Shown here piece after piece: positions 30,175 to 42,840 of a DNA stretch of 64,000 nt. The DNA lies in the NCBI GenBank assembly GCA_963666515.2, contig OY762897.2:2848001-2912000 (forward strand), in the 5' to 3' direction. A model generated the notes under the pieces. The model was not told where the DNA came from. It did no database searches and was given only the letters and a program-made list of their open reading frames with translations. The translations under genes were made by a program, and so were the position numbers. This stretch comes from Candidatus Binatia bacterium. GTDB lineage: Bacteria; Desulfobacterota; Binatia; UBA9968; JAJDTQ01. How positions within the stretch are numbered: the first letter of the stretch is position 1; each line of letters starts with the position of its first letter.

Positions 30175-30927
30175 TCACATGTACAGGCCGCCGTTGACGG
30201 CGATGGTCTGTCCGGTGATGTATTGACCCCCGGGACCGGCCAGGAACGCCACCGTCCCGGCCACGTCGCCGCCGCTGCCGAACCGGCCCAGGGGAATCGC
30301 GTCAAGATACTTGCTTCGGGTGCCCTCGTCCAGACCGGCGGTCATTTCCGTTTCGATGAAGCCCGGCGCGACGGCATTGACGGTGATCCCGCGCGGCGCC
30401 AGCTCCCGGGCCATGGACTTGGTAAAACCCACGATGCCCGCCTTGGAAGCGGCATAGACGGACTGCCCGACGTTTCCCGTTTGTCCGACCACCGAGGTCA
30501 GATTGACGATCCGGCCGCGCCGCTGCCGGATCATCCTCCTGCTGGCGGCCTTGGTGCAGTGGAACACGCCCCGCAGGTTGACGTCGATGATCCGTTCCCA
30601 GTCGGGGGCCGATTGGCGCAACAGCAGACCATCGACGGTCAACCCCGCATTGTTCACTAAAATATCAAGTTTCCCATGCCGGTCAACGACCTTCTTGAAA
30701 GCCTCCTCGACCTGATCCTGCCGGGCGACGTCGAACGGCGCCAGCTCGGCGCGGCCGTTGCCGTCGAGGACCTGCGCCAGCACGTCCTGCGCGGCTTCCC
30801 GGTTGTCCCGGTAGTTGATGATCACCGTGGCGCCCAGACGCGCCAGGCACAGCACGATCTCCCGCCCGATGCCCCGGCTGCCGCCCGTGACCAGCGCCAC
30901 CTCGTCCGCCAGCGACCCCGCGGCCAT
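30175..30927 (-). CDS. fabG: 3-oxoacyl-ACP reductase
   Basis: TGGSRGIG, NNAG, YAASKAG, VAPGFIET.MT, VNGG.YM. Confidence 0.96.
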   Translation of the reverse strand: MAAGSLADEVALVTGGSRGIGREIVLCLARLGATVIINYRDNREAAQDVLAQVLDGNGRAELAPFDVARQDQVEEAFKKVVDRHGKLDILVNNAGLTVDGLLLRQSAPDWERIIDVNLRGVFHCTKAASRRMIRQRRGRIVNLTSVVGQTGNVGQSVYAASKAGIVGFTKSMARELAPRGITVNAVAPGFIETEMTAGLDEGTRSKYLDAIPLGRFGSGGDVAGTVAFLAGPGGQYITGQTIAVNGGLYM

Positions 30928-30929
30928 GA

Positions 30930-31877
30930 TCAGCCTCGCGCCTCCGCCGGCAGCTTCTCCAGATCCTCGGGCTTCTCCAGGTTGAAAGTCTTCACCTGTC
31001 GATCGATGCGCCTGATGAGCCCGGACAGGACCTTTCCCGGCCCCACCTCGACGGCGCACTCGCAGCCGAGCTGCTTCAACGCCTCCACCGACTCCTCCCA
31101 CCGGACCGGCGCCACCACCTGCTCCACCAGCAGCGGCTTGACCCGCTCGGCGTCCGAGTTGAGGGCCGCCTCCACGTTGGTGACCACCCCCACCGAGAGC
31201 GGCCCCACCTCGACGCGCTCCAGCACGTCCCGCAGTCCCTCGGCCGCGGGCCGCATGAGCGCGCAGTGGAACGGAGCGCTCACCGCCAACTCCACCACCA
31301 TCCTCGCGTCCCGGTCCCGGGCCATTTGCGACGCCCGCTGCACCGCGGCGCGGGCGCCCGAAACCACCACCTGTCCGCCGCCGTTCAGGTTGGCCGGCGC
31401 CAGCACCTCGCCGTTTGCGGCCTCCTCGCAGATCTCCCGCACCGCGGCCGCATCCAGCCCGATGACCGCCGCCATCGCGCCCTCGCCCTGGGGCACGGCT
31501 TCCTGCATCAGGCGGCCCCGCTCGCGGACCACGGTGACGGCATCCGCCAACCCCAACGCCCCCGCACACACCAGCGCGCTGTACTCGCCGAGGCTGTGTC
31601 CGGCCGCCCACGCGGGCTTGAGCCCGCCGCGGTGTTCGAGGACCCGCAGGGCCGCCACCGACACGGTGACGATGGCAGGCTGGGTGTATTCCGTGCGGTT
31701 CAGGTCGGCTTCGGGACCGCGGAAGCACAACTCGCGCAGCCCCAGGCCCAGGGCGTCCTCGGCTTCCTCGAAAACGGCCCGGGCCTCGGCGAACTCGTCG
31801 CACAGGGCCTGCCCCATGCCCACCGCCTGTGAGCCCTGCCCCGGGAAAACGAAAGCGATGTTCTCTCCGCCCGGCAT
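30930..31877 (-). CDS. fabD: Malonyl-CoA:ACP transacylase
   Basis: FPGQGSQ, TQPAI, GHSLGEY, VSAPFHC. Confidence 0.96.
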   Translation of the reverse strand: MPGGENIAFVFPGQGSQAVGMGQALCDEFAEARAVFEEAEDALGLGLRELCFRGPEADLNRTEYTQPAIVTVSVAALRVLEHRGGLKPAWAAGHSLGEYSALVCAGALGLADAVTVVRERGRLMQEAVPQGEGAMAAVIGLDAAAVREICEEAANGEVLAPANLNGGGQVVVSGARAAVQRASQMARDRDARMVVELAVSAPFHCALMRPAAEGLRDVLERVEVGPLSVGVVTNVEAALNSDAERVKPLLVEQVVAPVRWEESVEALKQLGCECAVEVGPGKVLSGLIRRIDRQVKTFNLEKPEDLEKLPAEARG

Positions 31878-33119: not shown

Positions 33120-33641
33120 CTAACGGTCCACCCGGAGGTTACGGAAAACGGCCATACGGGGATCCCCCGGCGGCGCGCATTCACAACCCGTCCGGTTCAA
33201 CTCGGCGCCGCAACCGGGGCACAGGCCGCGACAGCTTTCGCTGCACAGCGGCCGCATAGGCAAGGCGAGTAGCGTTTGCTCGCGGACATAGGGAGAGAGG
33301 TCGATGTCTTCCCCGGAGTAGAAACTCAAACCCATCTCGTCCGCCGTGAGTTCCTTGTTTTTATTAGTCGGAAGGGGTTCCGGGGTCAACACGAAGTCGA
33401 AAGTTTTTTCGATGACGAACGGGAAGCTCTCCAGGCAGCGGCTGCAGTCTCCTTCCACGCTTCCCTTGAGGCCACCGTGGAAGAATATCTCCCGGCCCGA
33501 CCGGTAGCAGGTCACGTTCACGTGTATCGGCGACGGAAAGCGGAACGCCGAAACTCCCTGGCGGCCGACGTCAGGCGTCTCGGAGAAACGGCTTTCCCGC
33601 GGCACCGTGTCGATCCGTGTCAGGGGAATCCTCAAGGCCAC
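33120..33641 (-). CDS. YceD / DUF177 family protein
   Basis: CSRCL, IDL..YVREQ.LLALPMRPLCSESCRGLCPGCG, DPR; upstream of rpmF. Confidence 0.9.
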   Translation of the reverse strand: MALRIPLTRIDTVPRESRFSETPDVGRQGVSAFRFPSPIHVNVTCYRSGREIFFHGGLKGSVEGDCSRCLESFPFVIEKTFDFVLTPEPLPTNKNKELTADEMGLSFYSGEDIDLSPYVREQTLLALPMRPLCSESCRGLCPGCGAELNRTGCECAPPGDPRMAVFRNLRVDR

Positions 33642-33805
33642 TCCGGTTACGGGAAATCTTCTTACCGGGCGAACGCCGCCCTTGTCAACGCGGGATCGGC
33701 CGCGCGCCGAAAGGCGCCGGCGCCTTGTGGACCCGGACCGTTTCTGCTAACGCAACAGGCCGTGGGTTGTCGTTGCCGAACAGGGAACTGGGCCGGAGGC
33801 GGGGC

Positions 33806-34729
33806 GTGAACGCGCGGCTGGGTCTGCTGCACGCGGTCCTCCTGGCCACGGTCGACCTGAGCACCAAGGTGCCCGCGAGCCACCCGTCGGCGCGAAACCT
33901 GGGCACCGAGAGAATGGGCTCCGGCACCATCGTCGATCCCGCCGGCGCCATCCTGACCGTCAACTACGTCGTCAACGGCGCCGAGGACATCGCCGTGACG
34001 CTGTCGGACGGCAAGCAGTACCCCGGCCGCCTCGCGGCGCAGGACTTCGACACCGGCCTCGCCCTTGTCCGCATAGACGCGGCCGACCTGCCGTTCCTGC
34101 GGCCGGCCGAATCCGTCACCATCGGCCAGCCCGCCTTCATGGTCGCCAGCGCCGGACAGCAGTCCCGGCGGGTCAGCGACGGCAGCGTCACCTCCCTCGA
34201 AGGCTACGACGGACAGTGGGAATACCTGCTCGAACGCTCGATCCGCGTGAGCGCCTTCAATCCGGGCTTCGGCGGAGGCACGCTGGCCGACTCCCGGGGC
34301 CGCCTCATGGGGGTGGTGTCGCTCAACCTGAACGAGATCGGCAAGTTCACGTTGGCGATCCCGGTGGACTACTACCTCCGCGACGCGGACGAACTGCAAC
34401 GGCACGGGCGGGTCCGCAGCCGGCCACCCCGCCCCTGGCTCGGCTTCTACCCCCAGGCTCTCGGGGGCCACGTGCTGATCACCGGGGTCACGCCTTCGGG
34501 GCCGGCGGAGAAGTCGGGCCTGCAACAGGGCGACATCATCCTCACGGTGGAGGGCCAGGAAGTGCAGACCCGGCCCCAGCTCTACCGGGAGATCTGGAAG
34601 AAGCGCGCCGGGGACGTCATCACCTTTCACGTCATCCGGGGAGACGGCTCACTGGACGTCCCGGTGGCCAGCCGTGACCGCTGGGACTTCAACCAGCCCA
34701 ACCCGCTGGGCGGCAAAGCCGACGACTGA
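33806..34729 (+). CDS. HtrA/S1C-like trypsin-fold + PDZ protein lacking the catalytic triad
   Basis: GSGTIV, LTVNYVV, DTGLAL, FNPGFGGG; PDZ RPWLG..GPAEKSGLQQGDII. GTG 33806 follows GGAGG. Confidence 0.8.
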   Translation: MNARLGLLHAVLLATVDLSTKVPASHPSARNLGTERMGSGTIVDPAGAILTVNYVVNGAEDIAVTLSDGKQYPGRLAAQDFDTGLALVRIDAADLPFLRPAESVTIGQPAFMVASAGQQSRRVSDGSVTSLEGYDGQWEYLLERSIRVSAFNPGFGGGTLADSRGRLMGVVSLNLNEIGKFTLAIPVDYYLRDADELQRHGRVRSRPPRPWLGFYPQALGGHVLITGVTPSGPAEKSGLQQGDIILTVEGQEVQTRPQLYREIWKKRAGDVITFHVIRGDGSLDVPVASRDRWDFNQPNPLGGKADD

Positions 34730-34754
34730 CCCACGTCCTGTGCGGAGCGGGACC

Positions 34755-35159
34755 GTGAAGAACGTAACCACCTATCGTGTCATCTACGGCGACACGGACC
34801 AGATGGGGGTGGCCTACTACGCCAACTATCTCCGGTGGTTCGAGATCGGCAGGACCGAGTTCATGCGGGAAGCGGGGATTTCCTACGAGCAGGCGGAACG
34901 CGAAGGGTTCTTCTTCCCGGTCACCGAAGCGCAGTGCCGTTACCGCAGGCCGGCCCGTTACGACGACCTGTTGCGCATCGAGACCACTATCGAATCCCTG
35001 AGCCGCGTGGCGCTGAAGTTCCACTACCGGATCGGTCTGGAAGAGGACCGCGTCGCCCTCGCGTCGGGCTGGACGAAACACGCCTGCCTCGACCTGGAGC
35101 GAAAGCTGACCCGGCTGCCGGAACCGTACGCGCGCCGGCTGGGACTCGGCGCGGGGTAG
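34755..35159 (+). CDS. Acyl-CoA thioesterase (YbgC/4HBT family)
   Basis: RVIYGDTDQMGVAYYANYLRWFEIGR, PARYDD. Confidence 0.9.
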   Translation: MKNVTTYRVIYGDTDQMGVAYYANYLRWFEIGRTEFMREAGISYEQAEREGFFFPVTEAQCRYRRPARYDDLLRIETTIESLSRVALKFHYRIGLEEDRVALASGWTKHACLDLERKLTRLPEPYARRLGLGAG

Positions 35160-35171
35160 CGCAAGACGGGG

Positions 35172-36527
35172 TCAGGGAGACGGGGGATCCCAGGTGGGGG
35201 GATCGTCCTCGGCGGCGGGAAGCTCCGTAGGGCAGTAGATGTCCGCCACCTGCCGCAACAGCGCAATGTTGTCGGCGTGGCCGGTCATCCTCGCGGTCAC
35301 CCGGCCGCGCACGGGCCGGCCGAGGAGCGAGAAGTCGCCGACGATGTCCAGGACCTTGTGGCGCGCGAACTCGTCCTCGAACCTCAGGGTGGTGTTGATC
35401 ACCTTCTCGTCGTCGACGATGATGCAGTTGCCGAACCGGCCGCCCTTGATCATGCCCATCCGCTCGAGCTTCTCGAAATCCCGCAGGAAACCGAAGGTCC
35501 GGGCCGGGGCGATCTGCTCCCGGAAAGAATCCGCCCCCTCGTGGACGTAGGTGTATTCCTGCGTTCCCACCGGGCTGGGATAGCGCAGCCGGTAGTGAAC
35601 GGTGAAGCCGTCGGCCGGCTCGATGACGATCTCCTCGTCCCTGTCCCCGGCCACCCGAAGGGTCCGGTCGATGACGATCTCCGGGCGTTCTCCCTGCTGC
35701 TCTTCCACGCCGGCCTCCTCGATCAACCGGCAGAACTCGATGGCGGAACCGTCCATGATGGGAATCTCGCCGTACATCTTGATCAGGAGGTTCGTGACGC
35801 CGTAGGAATGGAGCGCCGCCAGCAGGTGCTCCACCGTCCCCACCACCACGCCGTCCCGCTGCAGCGAAGTGGCGAAATCCGTGGAGCGCACGTAGTCCAG
35901 GTGGGCCGGGACGGTGACGTCGGTGGAGATGCCGCCGAAGTGGATGCCGCTGTTCTCCGGCAAGGGATGCAGGATGACGCCGGTGTTGACGCCCGAATGC
36001 AGCCCGAGGCCGCACGCCACCACGCTTTTCCCGAGGGTCTTCTGCGGCGCGGCGCGGCCGCCGTTGCCGCCGGCGCCGAAGCGGCAGGACGGTTCCGGGA
36101 TACCGCCGCCCGCCGGCGCACCGGGCCCCACCCCGCCGCCGGGAGCTTCTCGCCTCGCGTCCTCGCACGCCCGCTCGATGGCGGCCAGCAAGCCGTCCAG
36201 GGAAAGCGGCTTCTCGATGAAGTCGAAAGCCCCGAGCTGCGTCGCGGCCACCGCGGTGTGGATGCTCCCGTGGCCGGAGATCATGATGACCCGCGCGTCC
36301 GGGTGTTCGCGCCGGATCTGCCTGAGAAGCACGATCCCGTCCATTTCGGGCATCCAGACGTCCAGGAGGATGACGTCCGGCTCCTCCCTCGCCACCAGCT
36401 CCATCACCTCCGACCCATCGGGGGACGCGACCACGCGGTAACCCTCGTCCGTGAGGATCTCCTTCACCGTCTCGCGGATGACGTCCTCATCGTCGACCAC
36501 CAGAACCGTTCTCTGCGCTGGCTGCAT
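35172..36527 (-). CDS. lpxC: Response-regulator receiver domain fused to UDP-3-O-acyl-GlcNAc deacetylase LpxC
   Basis: REC: VVDDE, LLDVWMP, MISGHG, FIEKP. LpxC: QKT..GLGLHSG, TVEHLLAAL, EIPIMDGSA, APARTFGF, RHKVLD, GH. One continuous ORF; GGAGGA RBS before ATG 36527. Confidence 0.92.
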   Translation of the reverse strand: MQPAQRTVLVVDDEDVIRETVKEILTDEGYRVVASPDGSEVMELVAREEPDVILLDVWMPEMDGIVLLRQIRREHPDARVIMISGHGSIHTAVAATQLGAFDFIEKPLSLDGLLAAIERACEDARREAPGGGVGPGAPAGGGIPEPSCRFGAGGNGGRAAPQKTLGKSVVACGLGLHSGVNTGVILHPLPENSGIHFGGISTDVTVPAHLDYVRSTDFATSLQRDGVVVGTVEHLLAALHSYGVTNLLIKMYGEIPIMDGSAIEFCRLIEEAGVEEQQGERPEIVIDRTLRVAGDRDEEIVIEPADGFTVHYRLRYPSPVGTQEYTYVHEGADSFREQIAPARTFGFLRDFEKLERMGMIKGGRFGNCIIVDDEKVINTTLRFEDEFARHKVLDIVGDFSLLGRPVRGRVTARMTGHADNIALLRQVADIYCPTELPAAEDDPPTWDPPSP

Positions 36528-36595
36528 GTCTGCTGGATCCTCCATGACCACGTTCGGGGCCGGGGCGCCGGGTGTCCCCTCTCCCCACCCATACA

Positions 36596-38923
36596 CTAGC
36601 TGGTGCGGACCTCCAACGGGTCCGTCTGGGCCGCCACCGGAAACTCGATGATGAAACGCGTGCCGCACGGCTGGTTCGGGCGCACGCGAACGTATCCCCG
36701 GTGATCGGCCACGATGGTCCCGACGATCGACAGGCCGAGTCCGGTGCCGTCCTTCTTGGTGGAGTAGTAGGGCTCGAACACCCGGCCGCGATCCTCCCGG
36801 GCGATGCCCTCACCCTCGTCCGCCACCTCCAGGCGGACCATGCCGAAGGTCTCGTCGAACCGGGTCGCGATCTCCACGCGCCCCTTGCCGTTCACGGACG
36901 CGACGGCGTTGTCGAGCAGATTGAAGATGGCCCGCTTGATCTGCTCCCGGTCCACTTCGACGGGCGGGATCGGGGCCTGCTCCGAGAGGTCGAACTCCAC
37001 TTCACGGTGTCCCTCCTTGAACAGGAACAGCGCCTCGCGGACCACGTCGTTGAGATCGTCCGGCACGAGCTGCGCGGTGGGCAGCCGCGCGAAGTTGGAG
37101 AACTCGTTCACCAGGGTCTTCAGCTCGTCCACCTGCCGGATGATGGTGGACGTGCACTTGTCGAGCACCGCCCCATCGCCGTCCAGGACTTTCTCGTAGC
37201 GCTTGCGCAGACGCTGCGCCGAGAGCTGGATCGGCGTCAACGGGTTCTTGATCTCGTGAGCGATGCGGCGCGCCACCTCGCGCCAGGCCTCCACGCGCTG
37301 CACCTTCAGGACCTCGGTGATGTCCTCCATGAAGAGCATGATGCCGAGCGTGTTGCCGTCGTCGTCCCGAAGGCTGGCGGCTGCGGTCATGAGCGTCAGC
37401 GGCCCGTCGCGGCCCACGATGCGCACGTCGCGCTCCACCCCGGCACTGCCCCTGACCTGCTCGATGACGTCGAGCAGGGGCCGCAGGTTGGGGGCATGCA
37501 GCGTCTCACCGTAGTCCCGGTGGAGCACGTCTCCGGCCCGGATCCCCAACATCATCTCGGCCGCCTTGTTGACGATGGTCACCTTCCCCGACCGGTCCAC
37601 CGAGATCACTCCCGCGGTGATGTTGCCCAGCAGCGTTTCCATGTAACGCCGCCGCTGCTCCAGCTCGGTGTTGGTGTGCTTGAGGTCCGCGGTCATCTGG
37701 TTGAACGACGCCACCAGCGCTCCGATCTCGTCGTCGCCGCCGGCGTCGATGCGATAGTCCAGGTTGCCGTGGGCGACTTCATGCGTGCCTTCCGCGAACT
37801 GCTGGATCGGCACGGTGATGCCTTTGGCCAGGGCGAGCCCGAACCAGGTGGCGAGGAAGATCATCACCAGGGTGATGACCAGCAGGGTCACGACGTAGGC
37901 TTTCTTCACGGGCTCGTTGAGGACCGCCAACTGCTTGTACTCGTCGTACGAGCGGGAGATCTGCTGCGCCTTCTTGCTGATGCTCCTGGGAACGAAGTAG
38001 TCCACCACCACCGCCCCGATGATCCTTCCGCCGTCGCCGTGCACCGGCACCGCCCCCCGCAGCACGTCGCCCTCGCCCAGCGGCTGGGTGCGGTCCACCT
38101 CCAGGCCCCGCAACGCGCTGTTGAGAAAGTCCGCCTGCGGGCTCACGGTGACTCCCGTGGGCACCTGGTCGTTGAAGGCCTTGATCAGCGCGGTCCCGTC
38201 CGGCTTGTAGACCTCCACCGTGCCGAGGTTGTACTCCCGCTGCTTTTCCTCGACGAGACGCTTCAGGCCGTCGAGCTTCTTCGGATCGAGGAGTTTCTCG
38301 TCGCCGATGCGCTGGCCGAGTTGCCGGGCGAAGAAGCGCGCGTTGTCGGCCGAGTTTCGATAGTAGGTCCGGCTGATGTCGACGGAGCCCTTGAGCGCGT
38401 TGACGATCTGCGGATCGAACCACTTGTCCACCGTGTCCACCGCGCGCGTCACGAAACTCCCGGCAATGAAGAACAGCACGACGGTGGGCACCAGCGAGAT
38501 GCCGACGAAGGTGAACACCAGCCGCGCCTGAAGACGGGAGCCGAGGATCCGCCGCCGGCGGTCCAGCACCAGTTTCAGCAGGTTCCGGGAAACCAGGAAG
38601 ACCAGCAGCACCAGCAGGATGAGGTTGACGTTGACCAGCACCAGGAAGGCGACGTTGCTGGTGACGGCGTAGTCCGCGGCGCCGTGCGGCAGGAGATCGT
38701 CGAAGAACGCGAACAGGGCGAACACCAGGACCATCAGGGCGGCGATGACGATCACCCACCGCTCGCGCCTGCGCCGCTTCCGTTCGTCGGATCGAAGCGT
38801 CTCCGCGTCAGCCTTGAGTGCGCTCGTTGGAGTGGCCAAACCGGCGTCCTCCCCCAGTTCCGTTCTATCGCTTCCGCCGGTAAAGCACAAAAGAAATGAC
38901 GGCGCTCGCCGGCCCCCGGACAT
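36596..38923 (-). CDS. ntrY: NtrY-like sensor histidine kinase (TM-HAMP-PAS-HisKA-HATPase); true start probably slightly downstream of 38923
   Basis: AWREVARRIAHEIKNPLTPIQLSAQRL, LVNEFSNFARLP, NLLDNA, FEPYYSTK..GTGLGL; HAMP DEIGALVASFNQM. Confidence 0.9.
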   Translation of the reverse strand: MSGGRRAPSFLLCFTGGSDRTELGEDAGLATPTSALKADAETLRSDERKRRRRERWVIVIAALMVLVFALFAFFDDLLPHGAADYAVTSNVAFLVLVNVNLILLVLLVFLVSRNLLKLVLDRRRRILGSRLQARLVFTFVGISLVPTVVLFFIAGSFVTRAVDTVDKWFDPQIVNALKGSVDISRTYYRNSADNARFFARQLGQRIGDEKLLDPKKLDGLKRLVEEKQREYNLGTVEVYKPDGTALIKAFNDQVPTGVTVSPQADFLNSALRGLEVDRTQPLGEGDVLRGAVPVHGDGGRIIGAVVVDYFVPRSISKKAQQISRSYDEYKQLAVLNEPVKKAYVVTLLVITLVMIFLATWFGLALAKGITVPIQQFAEGTHEVAHGNLDYRIDAGGDDEIGALVASFNQMTADLKHTNTELEQRRRYMETLLGNITAGVISVDRSGKVTIVNKAAEMMLGIRAGDVLHRDYGETLHAPNLRPLLDVIEQVRGSAGVERDVRIVGRDGPLTLMTAAASLRDDDGNTLGIMLFMEDITEVLKVQRVEAWREVARRIAHEIKNPLTPIQLSAQRLRKRYEKVLDGDGAVLDKCTSTIIRQVDELKTLVNEFSNFARLPTAQLVPDDLNDVVREALFLFKEGHREVEFDLSEQAPIPPVEVDREQIKRAIFNLLDNAVASVNGKGRVEIATRFDETFGMVRLEVADEGEGIAREDRGRVFEPYYSTKKDGTGLGLSIVGTIVADHRGYVRVRPNQPCGTRFIIEFPVAAQTDPLEVRTS

Positions 38924-38956
38924 CCGCCGCCAGCGCCGCGGGCGTATCGGGAACCC

Positions 38957-39994
38957 CTACAGCAGCCGCTTCTGCCGTTTCTCCCGGTCCACGCGCGAAG
39001 CGGACTGGGACCGTCCCAGGTGCCGGTAGGCCACCGGCGTGGCGACGCGGCCCTGCGGACGGCGCTCCAGGAAGCCGGCCTGGATGAGGTACGGCTCGTA
39101 GGCGTCCTCGATGGTGCCTCTTTCCTCGCCGATGGCCGCGGCGAGGGTATCCAGTCCCACCGGACCGCCGTCGAACTTGTCGATGATGGTGGCGAGGATG
39201 AGCGTATCCATCTTGTCGCAGCCCTGCTCGTCCACTTCCAGCATCTCCAGGGCCTCGCACGCCACCGGCCGGCTGATCCTTCCATCGCCGTGGACTTCCG
39301 CGTAGTCCCGTACCCGCCGCAGCAGCCGGTTGGCGATGCGCGGCGTGCCGCGGGAGCGGCGGGCGATCTCCATGAAGCCGGCGTCGTCGCCGCCCACGCC
39401 CAGGAGCGCCGCGGACCGGGCGAGCAGCTTCGCCAGCACCTCCGGCTCGTAGAAGTCGAGCCGGAACACCGCGCCGAACCGGTTGCGCAAGGCCGGCGTC
39501 AGCAGGCCGGAGCGGGTGGTGGCGCCAATGAGCGTGAACCGCTTGAGGTCCAGCTTGATGGATCGGGCGCCGGGTCCCTGGCCGATCATGACGTCCACCT
39601 GGAAGTCCTCCATGGCGGGGTACAGCACCTCCTCCACCACGTGGTTGAGGCGGTGTATCTCGTCGATGAACAGGACATCTCCGGCGTCGAGGTTGGTGAG
39701 CAGGGCGGCGAGGTCCCCGGGCCGCTCCACCACCGGGCCGGACGTGGGCCGGATGTCCACCTCCATCTCCCGGGAGATGAGGTGCGCCAGGGAGGTCTTG
39801 CCCAGGCCCGGAGGGCCGTGGAACAGGAGATGGTCCAGCACGTCGCCGCGCCGCTTGGCCGCGGTGATGGCCACGGCGAGGTTCGCCTTGACCTTCTCCT
39901 GGCCGAAGTACTCGCTGAAGCGCCGGGGCCGGAGGCTCGAGTCGTAGAGGACGTCCTCCTCGGTGCCCGCGGGCGAGATGGTCCTGTCTTCCAT
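38957..39994 (-). CDS. ruvB: Holliday junction helicase RuvB
   Basis: [39 protein letters not shown]. Confidence 0.98.
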
Positions 39995-41190: not shown

Positions 41191-41937
41191 TCACCCGGCC
41201 TTCTCGAGGATCTCGTCCGGGATGTCGAAGTTCGCCGCGACGCTCTGAACATCGTCATGGTCTTCCAGGTCCTCGGTGAGGCTGAGGGTCTGCACGGCTT
41301 CCTTCTCGCCGAGCTTCATGGTGTTCTTGGGGATCATGGCGACCTCCGCGGACGCCACGGGGATCTTCCCGTTCTCCAGGCTCTCCCGTACCGCGGCGAA
41401 GTCCTCGGGCTGCGTGATGATCTCGAACACGCCGTCACCCTCGGTGACGTCCTCGGCGCCGGCCTCCAGGGCAACCCCCAGCAACGCTTCCTCGTCCACC
41501 GCTTCCTTGGAGACGACGATGAGGCCCTTGTTGTCGAACATCCACGCCACGCAGCCGGTCTCGCCCAGACTCCCGCCGTGCTTGTTGAACAACCGCCGGA
41601 TGTCCGACACCGTGCGGTTGCGGTTGTCGGTCAGCACCTGCACCAGGAAGGCCGCCCCGCCCGGACCGTAGCCCTCGTAGCTCGTCTCCTCATAGGACAC
41701 CCCTTCCAGCTCGCCGGTGCCCTTCTTGATGGCGCGCTCGATGTTCTCGTTGGGCATGCTGTTTTCGCGGGCGGTCTGCACCGCGGTGCGCAGGCGCGGG
41801 TTGCTCGCCACGTCGCCCCCGCCCATGCGAGCCGCCACCGTGATCTCCTTGATGAACTTGGTGAAGAGCTTGCCCCGCTTGGCGTCCTTGGCTGCCTTCT
41901 TGTGCTTGATGGTGCTCCACTTGGAATGTCCGGACAT
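41191..41937 (-). CDS. yebC: YebC/PmpR family protein
   Basis: [37 protein letters not shown]. Confidence 0.96.
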
Positions 41938-42147
41938 GACGCGACGCTCTCCTCGGACAGGACTGGCCCCGTGGCCGGGACCGTTTGACCGACTGGGGGA
42001 CACCGAGCGAACCGCGTCCCCGGGTCCCACAATTGGTTTGCCATACGAAAGTACCACAATCGGCACCGGCCCGTAAACGGAACCGTCCGGGACCACCGTC
42101 GTGTCCCCGCTTCCATGCGGCGCGCGTTGCGGTATAATCAGCGTCCG

Positions 42148-42840
42148 ATGGTTCCTGCACGCGTCTGGCGGTTGTGCTCCGGGTGGGCCGCCGTCCTCGT
42201 CCTTCTGCTCTCCGCCTGCGCCCCCTCGAAACCGCCGGCGCCGCCCCTGCGCGTCCCCACGCCGCCGGCGGTGCCGCTCTCGCAGGAGGGCATCGCGTCC
42301 TGGTACGGACCCGGCTTCCACGGCAAGAAGACCACCAGCGGGACCGTCTACGACCAGTACGGCATGACCGCGGCGCACCAGACGCTGCCGCTGGGCTCCA
42401 GCGTGCAGGTCACCAACCTCGCCAACGGCAAGTCGGTCACCGTGCTGATCAACGACCGGGGACCCTTCGTCAAGGGGCGGGTCATCGACCTCTCCTACGC
42501 CGCGGCCGAGGCGGTGGACATGATAGGACCGGGAACGGCGCCGGTCCGCGTGGACGTCCTGGACACCGGCGGATACCCGCTCACGGCCATTCCCGACCGC
42601 CTCGACTACACCTTGCAGGTGGGGGCGTTCCTGGACCTGGCAAAGGCCCGCGAGATGAAGGACCGGCTCGAGAGCCGCTACGACAGGACGGTGGTGATCG
42701 AGCCCCACGAGGGCTACCACCGGGTGCGCCTCGGCACCTTCGCCGGCGAGGACGCAGCACGGGAGTACGGCGCCCGCCTTTCCGACGAAGGGTTGCCGGT
42801 GGTGATCGTCGAGGTGTGGCCGCGGGTGGCGGAGGAGTGA
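42148..42840 (+). CDS. rlpA: Septal ring lytic transglycosylase RlpA (with SPOR domain)
   Basis: Lipobox [38 protein letters not shown]. Confidence 0.93.

Follow-up and report, generated by a model that had tools for sequence, protein, structure and literature searches.

How can a sensor kinase influence lipid A synthesis when the gene that stands in the place of its response regulator encodes, in a single reading frame, both a receiver domain and the enzyme LpxC? This question is raised by two neighbouring genes in a stretch of 64,000 nucleotides (nt) from contig OY762897.2 of a Candidatus Binatia bacterium (positions 2,848,001 to 2,912,000), which is referred to here as the window. One of the genes encodes an NtrY-type sensor histidine kinase, the other a protein in which a receiver (REC) domain is joined through a linker to LpxC. 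The latter enzyme catalyses the committed and dose-sensitive step of lipid A synthesis and is a major antibiotic target; its control is known largely from a few proteobacteria. We here propose, with a probability of roughly 60%, that the two genes constitute a two-component system in which the lipid A enzyme itself serves as the response regulator. The initial annotation of the locus had suggested the same interpretation, and our comparison of sequences supports it as the best reading.

The fusion lies in an open reading frame (ORF) at 35172..36668 on the minus strand. Translation of the window DNA shows this frame to be open throughout, with neither a stop codon nor a frameshift. Because the upstream kinase gene ends at 36596, a start further downstream is favoured, and translation probably begins at ATG 36545 or at ATG 36527. 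The motif GGAGGA is found 10 nt ahead of the second of these, from which all residues of the fusion are numbered here. A Pfam scan of the ORF returned solely Response_reg (PF00072, 1.2e-33, 116 bits with a cut-off of 30.2) and LpxC (PF03331, 1.2e-82, 277.8 bits with a cut-off of 27, covering model positions 1-267 of 268), with no AAA+ and no helix-turn-helix (HTH) domain. The NCBIfam equivalog model for lpxC, TIGR00325, reaches 258.6 bits (cut-off 187.25). The NtrX model NF051870 matches with 125.4 bits at model positions 3-123 only, its cut-off being 600. By these family models, the protein belongs to LpxC as well as to the receiver family, and it is not an NtrX.

The receiver half contains D12/D13, D56 (in LLDVWMP), S84 (in MISGHG) and K106 (in FIEKP), and the solved structures closest to it are 4d6x/5m7n, which we take to be Brucella NtrX, and NtrC receivers. 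In the enzyme half, the TVEHL, HKVLD..GD and GH motifs align with their equivalents in solved LpxC chains (1.3e-52), where the TVEH, HKxLDxxGD and GH residues presumably act as zinc ligands and as the catalytic Glu and His. The initial annotation had described an uninterrupted frame with the receiver motifs DD, LLDVWMP, MISGHG and FIEKP, a Gly/Pro/Ala linker and a complete LpxC bearing TVEHL, HKVLD and GH, lacking AAA+ and HTH domains. All of these elements were recovered, the linker in the place assigned to it (Table 1).

Table 1. Positions, within the window, of the kinase gene, the fusion gene with its parts, and the adjoining ruvB gene.
Feature	Position	Strand	Basis or remark
REC-linker-LpxC fusion gene	35172..36545	-	Alternative start ATG 36527; stop codon 35172-35174
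Receiver (REC) domain, NtrC/NtrX type	36174..36506	-	PF00072, 1.2e-33
Predicted phospho-acceptor Asp codon	36360..36362	-	D56 counted from ATG 36527, D103 of P0001; motif LLDVWMP
Gly/Ala/Pro low-complexity linker, 41 amino acids	36047..36173	-	Translation and homologue alignment
LpxC domain (UDP-3-O-acyl-GlcNAc deacetylase), containing the zinc and catalytic motifs	35244..36044	-	PF03331, TIGR00325
Acidic, proline-rich C-terminal tail, lineage-specific	35175..35243	-	Homologue comparison
NtrY-type sensor histidine kinase gene	36596..38923	-	Directly upstream of the fusion gene
ruvB, final gene of yebC-ruvC-ruvA-ruvB	38957..39994	-	Directly upstream of the kinase gene, 33 nt from the kinase start

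A frame of this kind could result from an error of assembly or gene calling, or from a recent deletion private to this genome. Public sequencing runs from four studies contain the window stretch or parts of it. A contig of 4726 nt from another study covers 35103-36700 unbroken, with 45 differences. A contig of 1386 nt from a further study covers 35232-36531 and bridges the linker, its only length changes inside the ORF being two in-frame 3-nt deletions, both in the linker. Since independent contigs from two other studies bridge the linker, the junction is not an assembly artefact. Moreover, the ORF is free of stops and frameshifts, and the fusion is not unique to this assembly, as a further 50 sampled genomes of the phylum share the architecture and 23 more have a longer form. 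Thus, we regard an artefactual or private origin as a negligible possibility. Two studies have runs labelled sponge metagenome that contain near-identical DNA (about 95-98% alike over 35100-36700), and the organism may be sponge-associated.

All of the best 120 protein-database matches carry both Pfam domains (417-472 amino acids, 60-94% identical), and the named sources among them are metagenome-assembled genomes of Binatia or 'Deltaproteobacteria'. In the GTDB phylum of the window, 283 of 301 sampled genomes contain an LpxC, and 76 of the 301, that of the window included, carry one closely related to the fused enzyme. By Pfam, the 75 loci other than that of the window comprise 50 with REC+LpxC (the short form), 23 with REC+Sigma54_activat+AAA_lid+LpxC (the long form) and 2 partial ones. 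The long form is also borne by loci labelled Nitrospinaceae. Within the phylum so labelled, 101 genomes were sampled, and 96 of them have a match to the long form (E<=1e-50), with the regulator and LpxC parts in one frame of about 675-800 amino acids among the matches listed. One fusion-bearing lineage presumably includes culturable marine nitrite oxidisers.

Irregular frames were also encountered. Two long-form loci have an LpxC frame that lacks a receiver, i.e. AAA_lid+LpxC of 410 amino acids in L124 (genome G269) and AAA+-lid-LpxC of 629 amino acids in L137 (genome G261), and one long form, in genome G306, has an in-frame TGA. These anomalies may be frameshifts, sequencing errors or decaying copies. 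Stop-free frames of 934-1354 amino acids in L087, L090 and L097 were considered as triple fusions of kinase, receiver and LpxC and were rejected, as they contain no kinase domains. No relative of the LpxC part longer than 800 amino acids was found at E<=1e-40, which is weak evidence on this point.

The genome of the window (4.67 Mb in 2 contigs, 98.35% complete) contains exactly one LpxC match, and this match is the fusion gene. LpxA and LpxB are found as well, from which it follows that a lipid A pathway exists. On this gene content, the fused enzyme is needed. A single LpxC match is likewise present in 72 of the 76 fusion-bearing genomes.

To what extent both halves of the protein are under constraint can be seen from an alignment of 79 short-fusion homologues, which are 43-93% identical to the window protein. 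Throughout this set, the receiver keeps D12, D13, D56, S84 and K106, and LpxC keeps E233, H234, T344, H390, K391, D394, D398 and H417, without exception. When short, long and partial fusions are taken together, D12, D13, D56 and K106 are conserved in 100% of 93 receivers; at position 84, 80% of all fusions have Ser, and 65% of the long forms have Thr. In the 79 homologues the linker is 26-65 amino acids long (median 38), rich in Gly, Ala, Arg, Pro, Glu and Ser and without conservation, and the tail past the LpxC domain has a median length of 1 amino acid and a maximum of 28. Going by this pattern, both halves of the fusion look functional.

The same data bear on a different explanation, in which the receiver is a fossil left over from an ancestral regulator, i.e. 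an unphosphorylated module for dimerisation or solubility, and LpxC is regulated by other means. Parts of these proteins can indeed lose their function and persist, as the clearly decayed AAA+ domain of the long forms illustrates, and most fusions are not next to a kinase. However, a fossil receiver is difficult to reconcile with five phospho-chemistry residues that are invariant in the 79 short fusions, four of them without exception in all 93 receivers, and with a kinase orthologue that is always adjacent in the window's class and elsewhere, in five of five genomes, is single copy with no other adjacent partner. We therefore consider the fossil explanation very unlikely.

The kinase consists of three N-terminal transmembrane segments, a periplasmic Cache-like region and a fourth transmembrane segment, followed by HAMP (3.4e-14), PAS (2.3e-14), HisKA (2e-11) and HATPase_c (6.3e-22) domains. 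Its H-box, AHEIKNPL, as well as the N, G1 and G2 boxes are intact, and HEIKN of the H-box is presumably the phosphatase motif of bifunctional HisKA kinases. Among five tested orthologues, three pass the NtrY_N cut-off (36.5, 31.3 and 25.6 bits). The kinase gene lies directly upstream of the fusion on the same strand in 10 out of 10 genomes from the class of the window, that of the window being one of them; the nine others also belong to the window's order. Overall, a kinase is found directly upstream in 10 of 50 short-form and 9 of 23 long-form loci, and 9 further short-form loci of another collection have it upstream as well. Because adjacency is not general, the pairing at non-adjacent loci can only be inferred. 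Each of five genomes with a stand-alone fusion encodes exactly one full-length orthologue of the kinase (31-46% identity), located on another contig and lacking a neighbouring receiver gene. The simplest explanation for a kinase and a receiver-enzyme that are both orphans and both single copy is that they form a pair.

At two loci with an orphan kinase, a DUF4390 gene is located directly upstream of the kinase (L159:1414-1998 and L161:6178-6825), the gene order in L161 being ruvB-DUF4390-kinase. DUF4390 genes stand ahead of ntrY in Betaproteobacteria, which would tie the kinase family to NtrY.

From which known system does this pair derive? The initial annotation had placed the fusion in the slot that is occupied by NtrX behind ntrY. 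NtrY/NtrX of Alpha- and Betaproteobacteria does resemble the locus, in that the window kinase shares the topology of NtrY and NtrX provides the best receiver model. NtrYX has been described to lower the lpxC transcript and lipopolysaccharide in Rhodobacter sphaeroides (indirectly) and in Caulobacter crescentus (PMC7240162, PMC12444477). NtrX, however, is a DNA-binding protein with a broad regulon and an indirect effect on lpxC in R. sphaeroides (PMC7240162), whereas the fusion is devoid of AAA+ and HTH domains. The interpretation of the slot can be refined in two respects. Fusions that keep a dead AAA+ domain document how AAA+ and HTH came to be replaced, and the nearest characterised relative appears to be not alphaproteobacterial NtrYX but the lpxC-dedicated sigma54 system of Desulfovibrio, matched to the window through the orthologue and synteny statements of the respective papers.

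The genomic evidence for this relationship comes from 24 loci labelled Desulfobacterota or Acidobacteriota, in which a free lpxC is followed on the same strand by a kinase orthologue and then by a regulator. The free lpxC is upstream of the regulator in 24 of 24 loci, kinase matches of at least 300 amino acids lie between the two in 24, and these kinases are 37-46% identical to the window kinase. With the kinase of one such locus, the window kinase shares 44% identity over 674 amino acids, and in the reverse search of the window genome the window kinase scores 606 bits, followed by the next match at 94. As forward and reverse searches agree, the two kinases are reciprocal best hits. By sequence similarity, the window kinase is the unique orthologue of the kinase in the lpxC-linked sigma54 system.

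The unfused regulators of these systems have the features of sigma54 activators. Of eight that were scanned with Pfam, seven are REC-AAA+-HTH_8 proteins, with Sigma54_activat scores of 234-249 bits, and one lacks an HTH_8 match. Among 12 aligned regulators (Desulfobacterota, Acidobacteriota and Myxococcota labels), GAFTGA is present in 11 and both the Walker B Asp-Glu and the arginine-finger motif in all 12. NtrX is the top NCBIfam model for the unfused regulators (391-531 bits, below its cut-off), and also for the fusion receiver and the long fusions. Within the 450 nt ahead of the free lpxC, a -24/-12 sigma54 site is present at 16 of the 24 loci, in most cases at a distance of 52-100 nt from the gene, compared with a background of 29 in 526 equal-size windows.

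What is known of the Desulfovibrio system agrees with a dedicated circuit. In D. vulgaris, lpxC is the sole target of DVU2934, which binds only upstream of lpxC, and orthologues of DVU2934 are reported for Geobacter and Acidobacterium; in Syntrophobacter, the operon is immediately preceded by lpxC (Rajeev 2011, PMC3333781). For D. alaskensis G20, signalling has been described from the kinase Dde_3000 to Dde_3003, a sigma54 activator whose only target, lpxC, has a sigma54 site and is strongly up in the Dde_3000 kinase mutant (Kuehl 2014, PMC4045070). Among the literature matches on the dvu2933 operon, two mention only its regulation of lpxC. DVU2931/DVU2934 and Dde_3000/Dde_3003 share with the window pair a membrane kinase of the same architecture, and their single known output is LpxC; all conserved positions are common to the receivers of the unfused regulators and the fusion receiver. 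The difference lies in the way the output is reached: the Desulfovibrio regulator is a REC-AAA+-HTH protein that acts on the lpxC promoter, whereas in the window the receiver is covalently joined to LpxC, and an active sigma54 AAA+ domain, an HTH domain and a sigma54 site are missing.

A second regulator, which has an HD-GYP domain, is likewise encoded in the Desulfovibrio operon (Rajeev 2011, PMC3333781). This is a point in favour of a reversed flow of information, in which LpxC would report the occupancy of its substrate or product and the protein would act as a phosphate sink or kinase modulator, with the output located elsewhere. Beyond this, the idea can draw on the general precedent of receivers that act as phosphate sinks. 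In the genomes at hand, however, no second receiver gene lies beside the window kinase or the orphan kinases, and the LpxC domain, which is the only LpxC of the genome, keeps every catalytic residue. A reversed flow is thus a far-fetched alternative.

Turning back to the two-component reading, its evolutionary origin can be approached through the fused domains themselves. In a tree of 118 LpxC domains (quick search, LG+G4, with a free set made up of those that this query reached), 94 fused domains (66 short, 26 long and 2 partial) are separated from 24 free ones by a branch with 99% SH-aLRT support. By this tree the fused LpxC domains form one clade, and the data fit one origin. Four residues of the LpxC domain are fusion-specific, K250 among them. 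All 94 fused domains (100%) have Lys at position 250; of the 24 free domains, 88% have Glu there, and K250 is the clearest sequence signature of the fused clade. The receiver tree (122 columns) is unresolved; a topology constrained to unite 93 fusion receivers in a single clade is not rejected (p-AU 0.90).

The long forms preserve traces of what the regulator may once have been. In their AAA+ domain, GAFTGA, the Walker B Glu and the arginine finger are missing from 26 of the 26 rows that cover those columns. Because these motifs are lost, this domain is not a sigma54 activator and probably not an ATPase. Between the AAA lid and LpxC, HTH-like matches below threshold occur in the same place in five of nine long forms, the best being HTH_8 with 20.2 bits (cut-off 22). 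These relics hint that LpxC was added behind a complete regulator. Moreover, as the window kinase is orthologous to that of a system serving lpxC only, a regulator of lpxC transcription was apparently fused to its own target enzyme. In the scenario that we propose, the ancestor would have been a sigma54 enhancer-binding regulator of the REC-AAA+-HTH type with the neighbouring lpxC as its sole target. LpxC would then have been joined to the C-terminus of this regulator, and decay of the HTH and ATPase parts would have led to the long form, REC-dead AAA+-LpxC. In several lineages, that of the window included, the AAA+ domain would finally have become absent, giving REC-linker-LpxC, so that the long form would have preceded the short one. 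Whether a transcription factor was in this way fused to the product of its single target, and control of lipid A moved from promoter to protein, is in our estimation evenly balanced.

How would the present-day pair work? In the two-component reading, the membrane kinase, with its NtrY topology, periplasmic sensor, HAMP and PAS domains, would set the phosphorylation of Asp56. The state of the receiver would in turn alter the amount of active LpxC, be it via catalysis, oligomeric state or turnover, and lipid A flux would follow an envelope or redox signal without new transcription. Both the phosphotransfer from kinase to receiver and an effect of phosphorylation on LpxC, along with its sign, are inferred. 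The layout of receiver, flexible linker and enzyme is the same as in CheB (REC-methylesterase), REC-GGDEF and REC-HD-GYP proteins, and, as in that class, the state of the receiver would gate the enzyme attached to it. In CheB, the unphosphorylated receiver docks through a conserved surface and occludes the catalytic domain; sequence comparison revealed no sign of such a surface in the fusion receiver. Given the variable linker and a receiver surface that is not fusion-specific, control via dimerisation or oligomerisation, or via turnover, is left as an alternative.

Turnover is also central to a separate explanation, in which the receiver is a degradation switch or adaptor and its phosphorylation exposes the protein to FtsH, Lon or ClpXP, or hides it from them. 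Phosphorylation would then set the level of LpxC and not its specific activity, in parallel to the proteolytic control in E. coli. In the studied proteobacteria LpxC is mainly controlled via its protein level, which in Gammaproteobacteria is achieved by proteolysis via a C-terminal degron (PMC12444477, PMC3333781). The FtsH/LapB/YejM pathway of Gammaproteobacteria has the same target as the system proposed here and follows the same logic, in that the committed step is adjusted post-translationally. A receiver without a surface specific to fusions and a linker that looks disordered fit recognition by a third party better than docking, and an E. coli-type LapB adaptor was not found with the Pfam zinc-ribbon model. 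On the other hand, unlike the gammaproteobacterial enzymes, the fusion has no conserved C-terminal tail, and its sequence contains no sign of a degron. Neither in the window nor in the related loci examined is the fusion linked to a gene for a protease or an adaptor; no search aimed at FtsH or YejM was made. Taken together, we consider a degradation switch unlikely.

The sole match in the genome to the Pfam zinc-ribbon model of LapB (PF18073, 58.5 bits, G000:C1:4286315-4286398) was rejected as a LapB candidate, since it is the N-terminal zinc ribbon of a RadA-like ORF. The Zn_ribbon_LapB model matches 10 of 14 control genomes, Bacillus included, and is thus not specific for LapB.

Several observations weigh against the two-component reading or against the origin proposed for it. 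No kinase is found within about 4.5 kb in 40 of the 50 short-form and 14 of the 23 long-form loci. The window kinase itself reaches 21.6 bits with NtrY_N, just under the Pfam cut-off of 23.2, and stays below every NCBIfam equivalog cut-off. When fusion and free receivers were compared, no position conserved solely in fusions was found, every strongly conserved position being common to both; this absence of a fusion-specific surface and the long, variable linker speak against a fixed interface docked in the manner of CheB. The sign of the control may be positive or negative: the regulator of the ancestral system activates, yet in D. alaskensis lpxC expression rose when the kinase was lost (PMC4045070). 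The assignment of the Desulfovibrio system as nearest characterised relative was made via statements in the literature. In the outgroup-rooted LpxC tree, short forms branch first, and the short/long label needs 4-5 changes. Finally, four fusion-bearing genomes (G034, G074, G199 and G258) have a second LpxC match.

In G034 (locus L149), a canonical LpxC (2.1e-110) exists in addition to the fusion. The G034 fusion forms by far the longest branch in both the LpxC and the receiver tree (about 1.05-1.08), which may reflect relaxed constraint given the second LpxC.

With respect to the surroundings of the two genes, ruvB (Table 1) may be co-transcribed with the kinase gene; no promoter or terminator signal was detected between them, and the ruvB-kinase linkage is seen again in related loci. 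The region 34600-39300 contains no sigma70-like promoter and two terminator-like matches, a number within chance (shuffle mean 1.8), and no -24/-12 sigma54 site was detected on the minus strand near 36500-39100. Two genes on the plus strand converge on the 3' end of the fusion gene, one for a trypsin-PDZ (HtrA-like) protease (33617-34729) and one for a YbgC-like 4HBT thioesterase (34674-35159). In loci L003-L005, the thioesterase gene is found again, about 1.9 kb downstream of the fusion and on the strand opposite to it. Two ORFs on the minus strand are over-long. The ORF at 30175-31803 has its SDR domain only at residues 302-540 of 542, and that at 41191-42720 has its YebC domains only at residues 266-498 of 509; such calls are typical of high-GC DNA, the true starts lying far downstream.

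In the open full-text literature no description of a receiver-LpxC fusion was found, subscription journals and supplements being outside the scope of the search. This is in keeping with the initial annotation, which knew of no characterised example. The words fusion, fused, response regulator and Desulfovibrio are absent from a 2025 review on lipid A regulation (PMC12444477). Compared to the enzymatic response regulators mentioned above, the output of the fusion is a biosynthetic metallo-amidase, which, according to our searches, has not previously been described as the output of a regulator.

The fusion would thus add a biosynthetic metallo-amidase to the outputs of response regulators. As it names the regulator, the kinase and the site of modification, the question of how LpxC is controlled in these bacteria becomes testable with pure proteins. 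In this family, the passage of regulation from transcription to the protein moreover appears to be recorded step by step, which is rare. If the proposed origin is correct, a fossil series would be visible, leading from REC-AAA+-HTH beside lpxC via REC-dead AAA+-(HTH relic)-LpxC to REC-LpxC. If the two-component reading is correct, LpxC would be controlled in a third way, in addition to proteolysis and transcription, and a membrane sensor kinase would directly gate the committed step of outer-membrane synthesis in the phylum labelled Nitrospinaceae and in a quarter of the genomes sampled from the phylum of the window.

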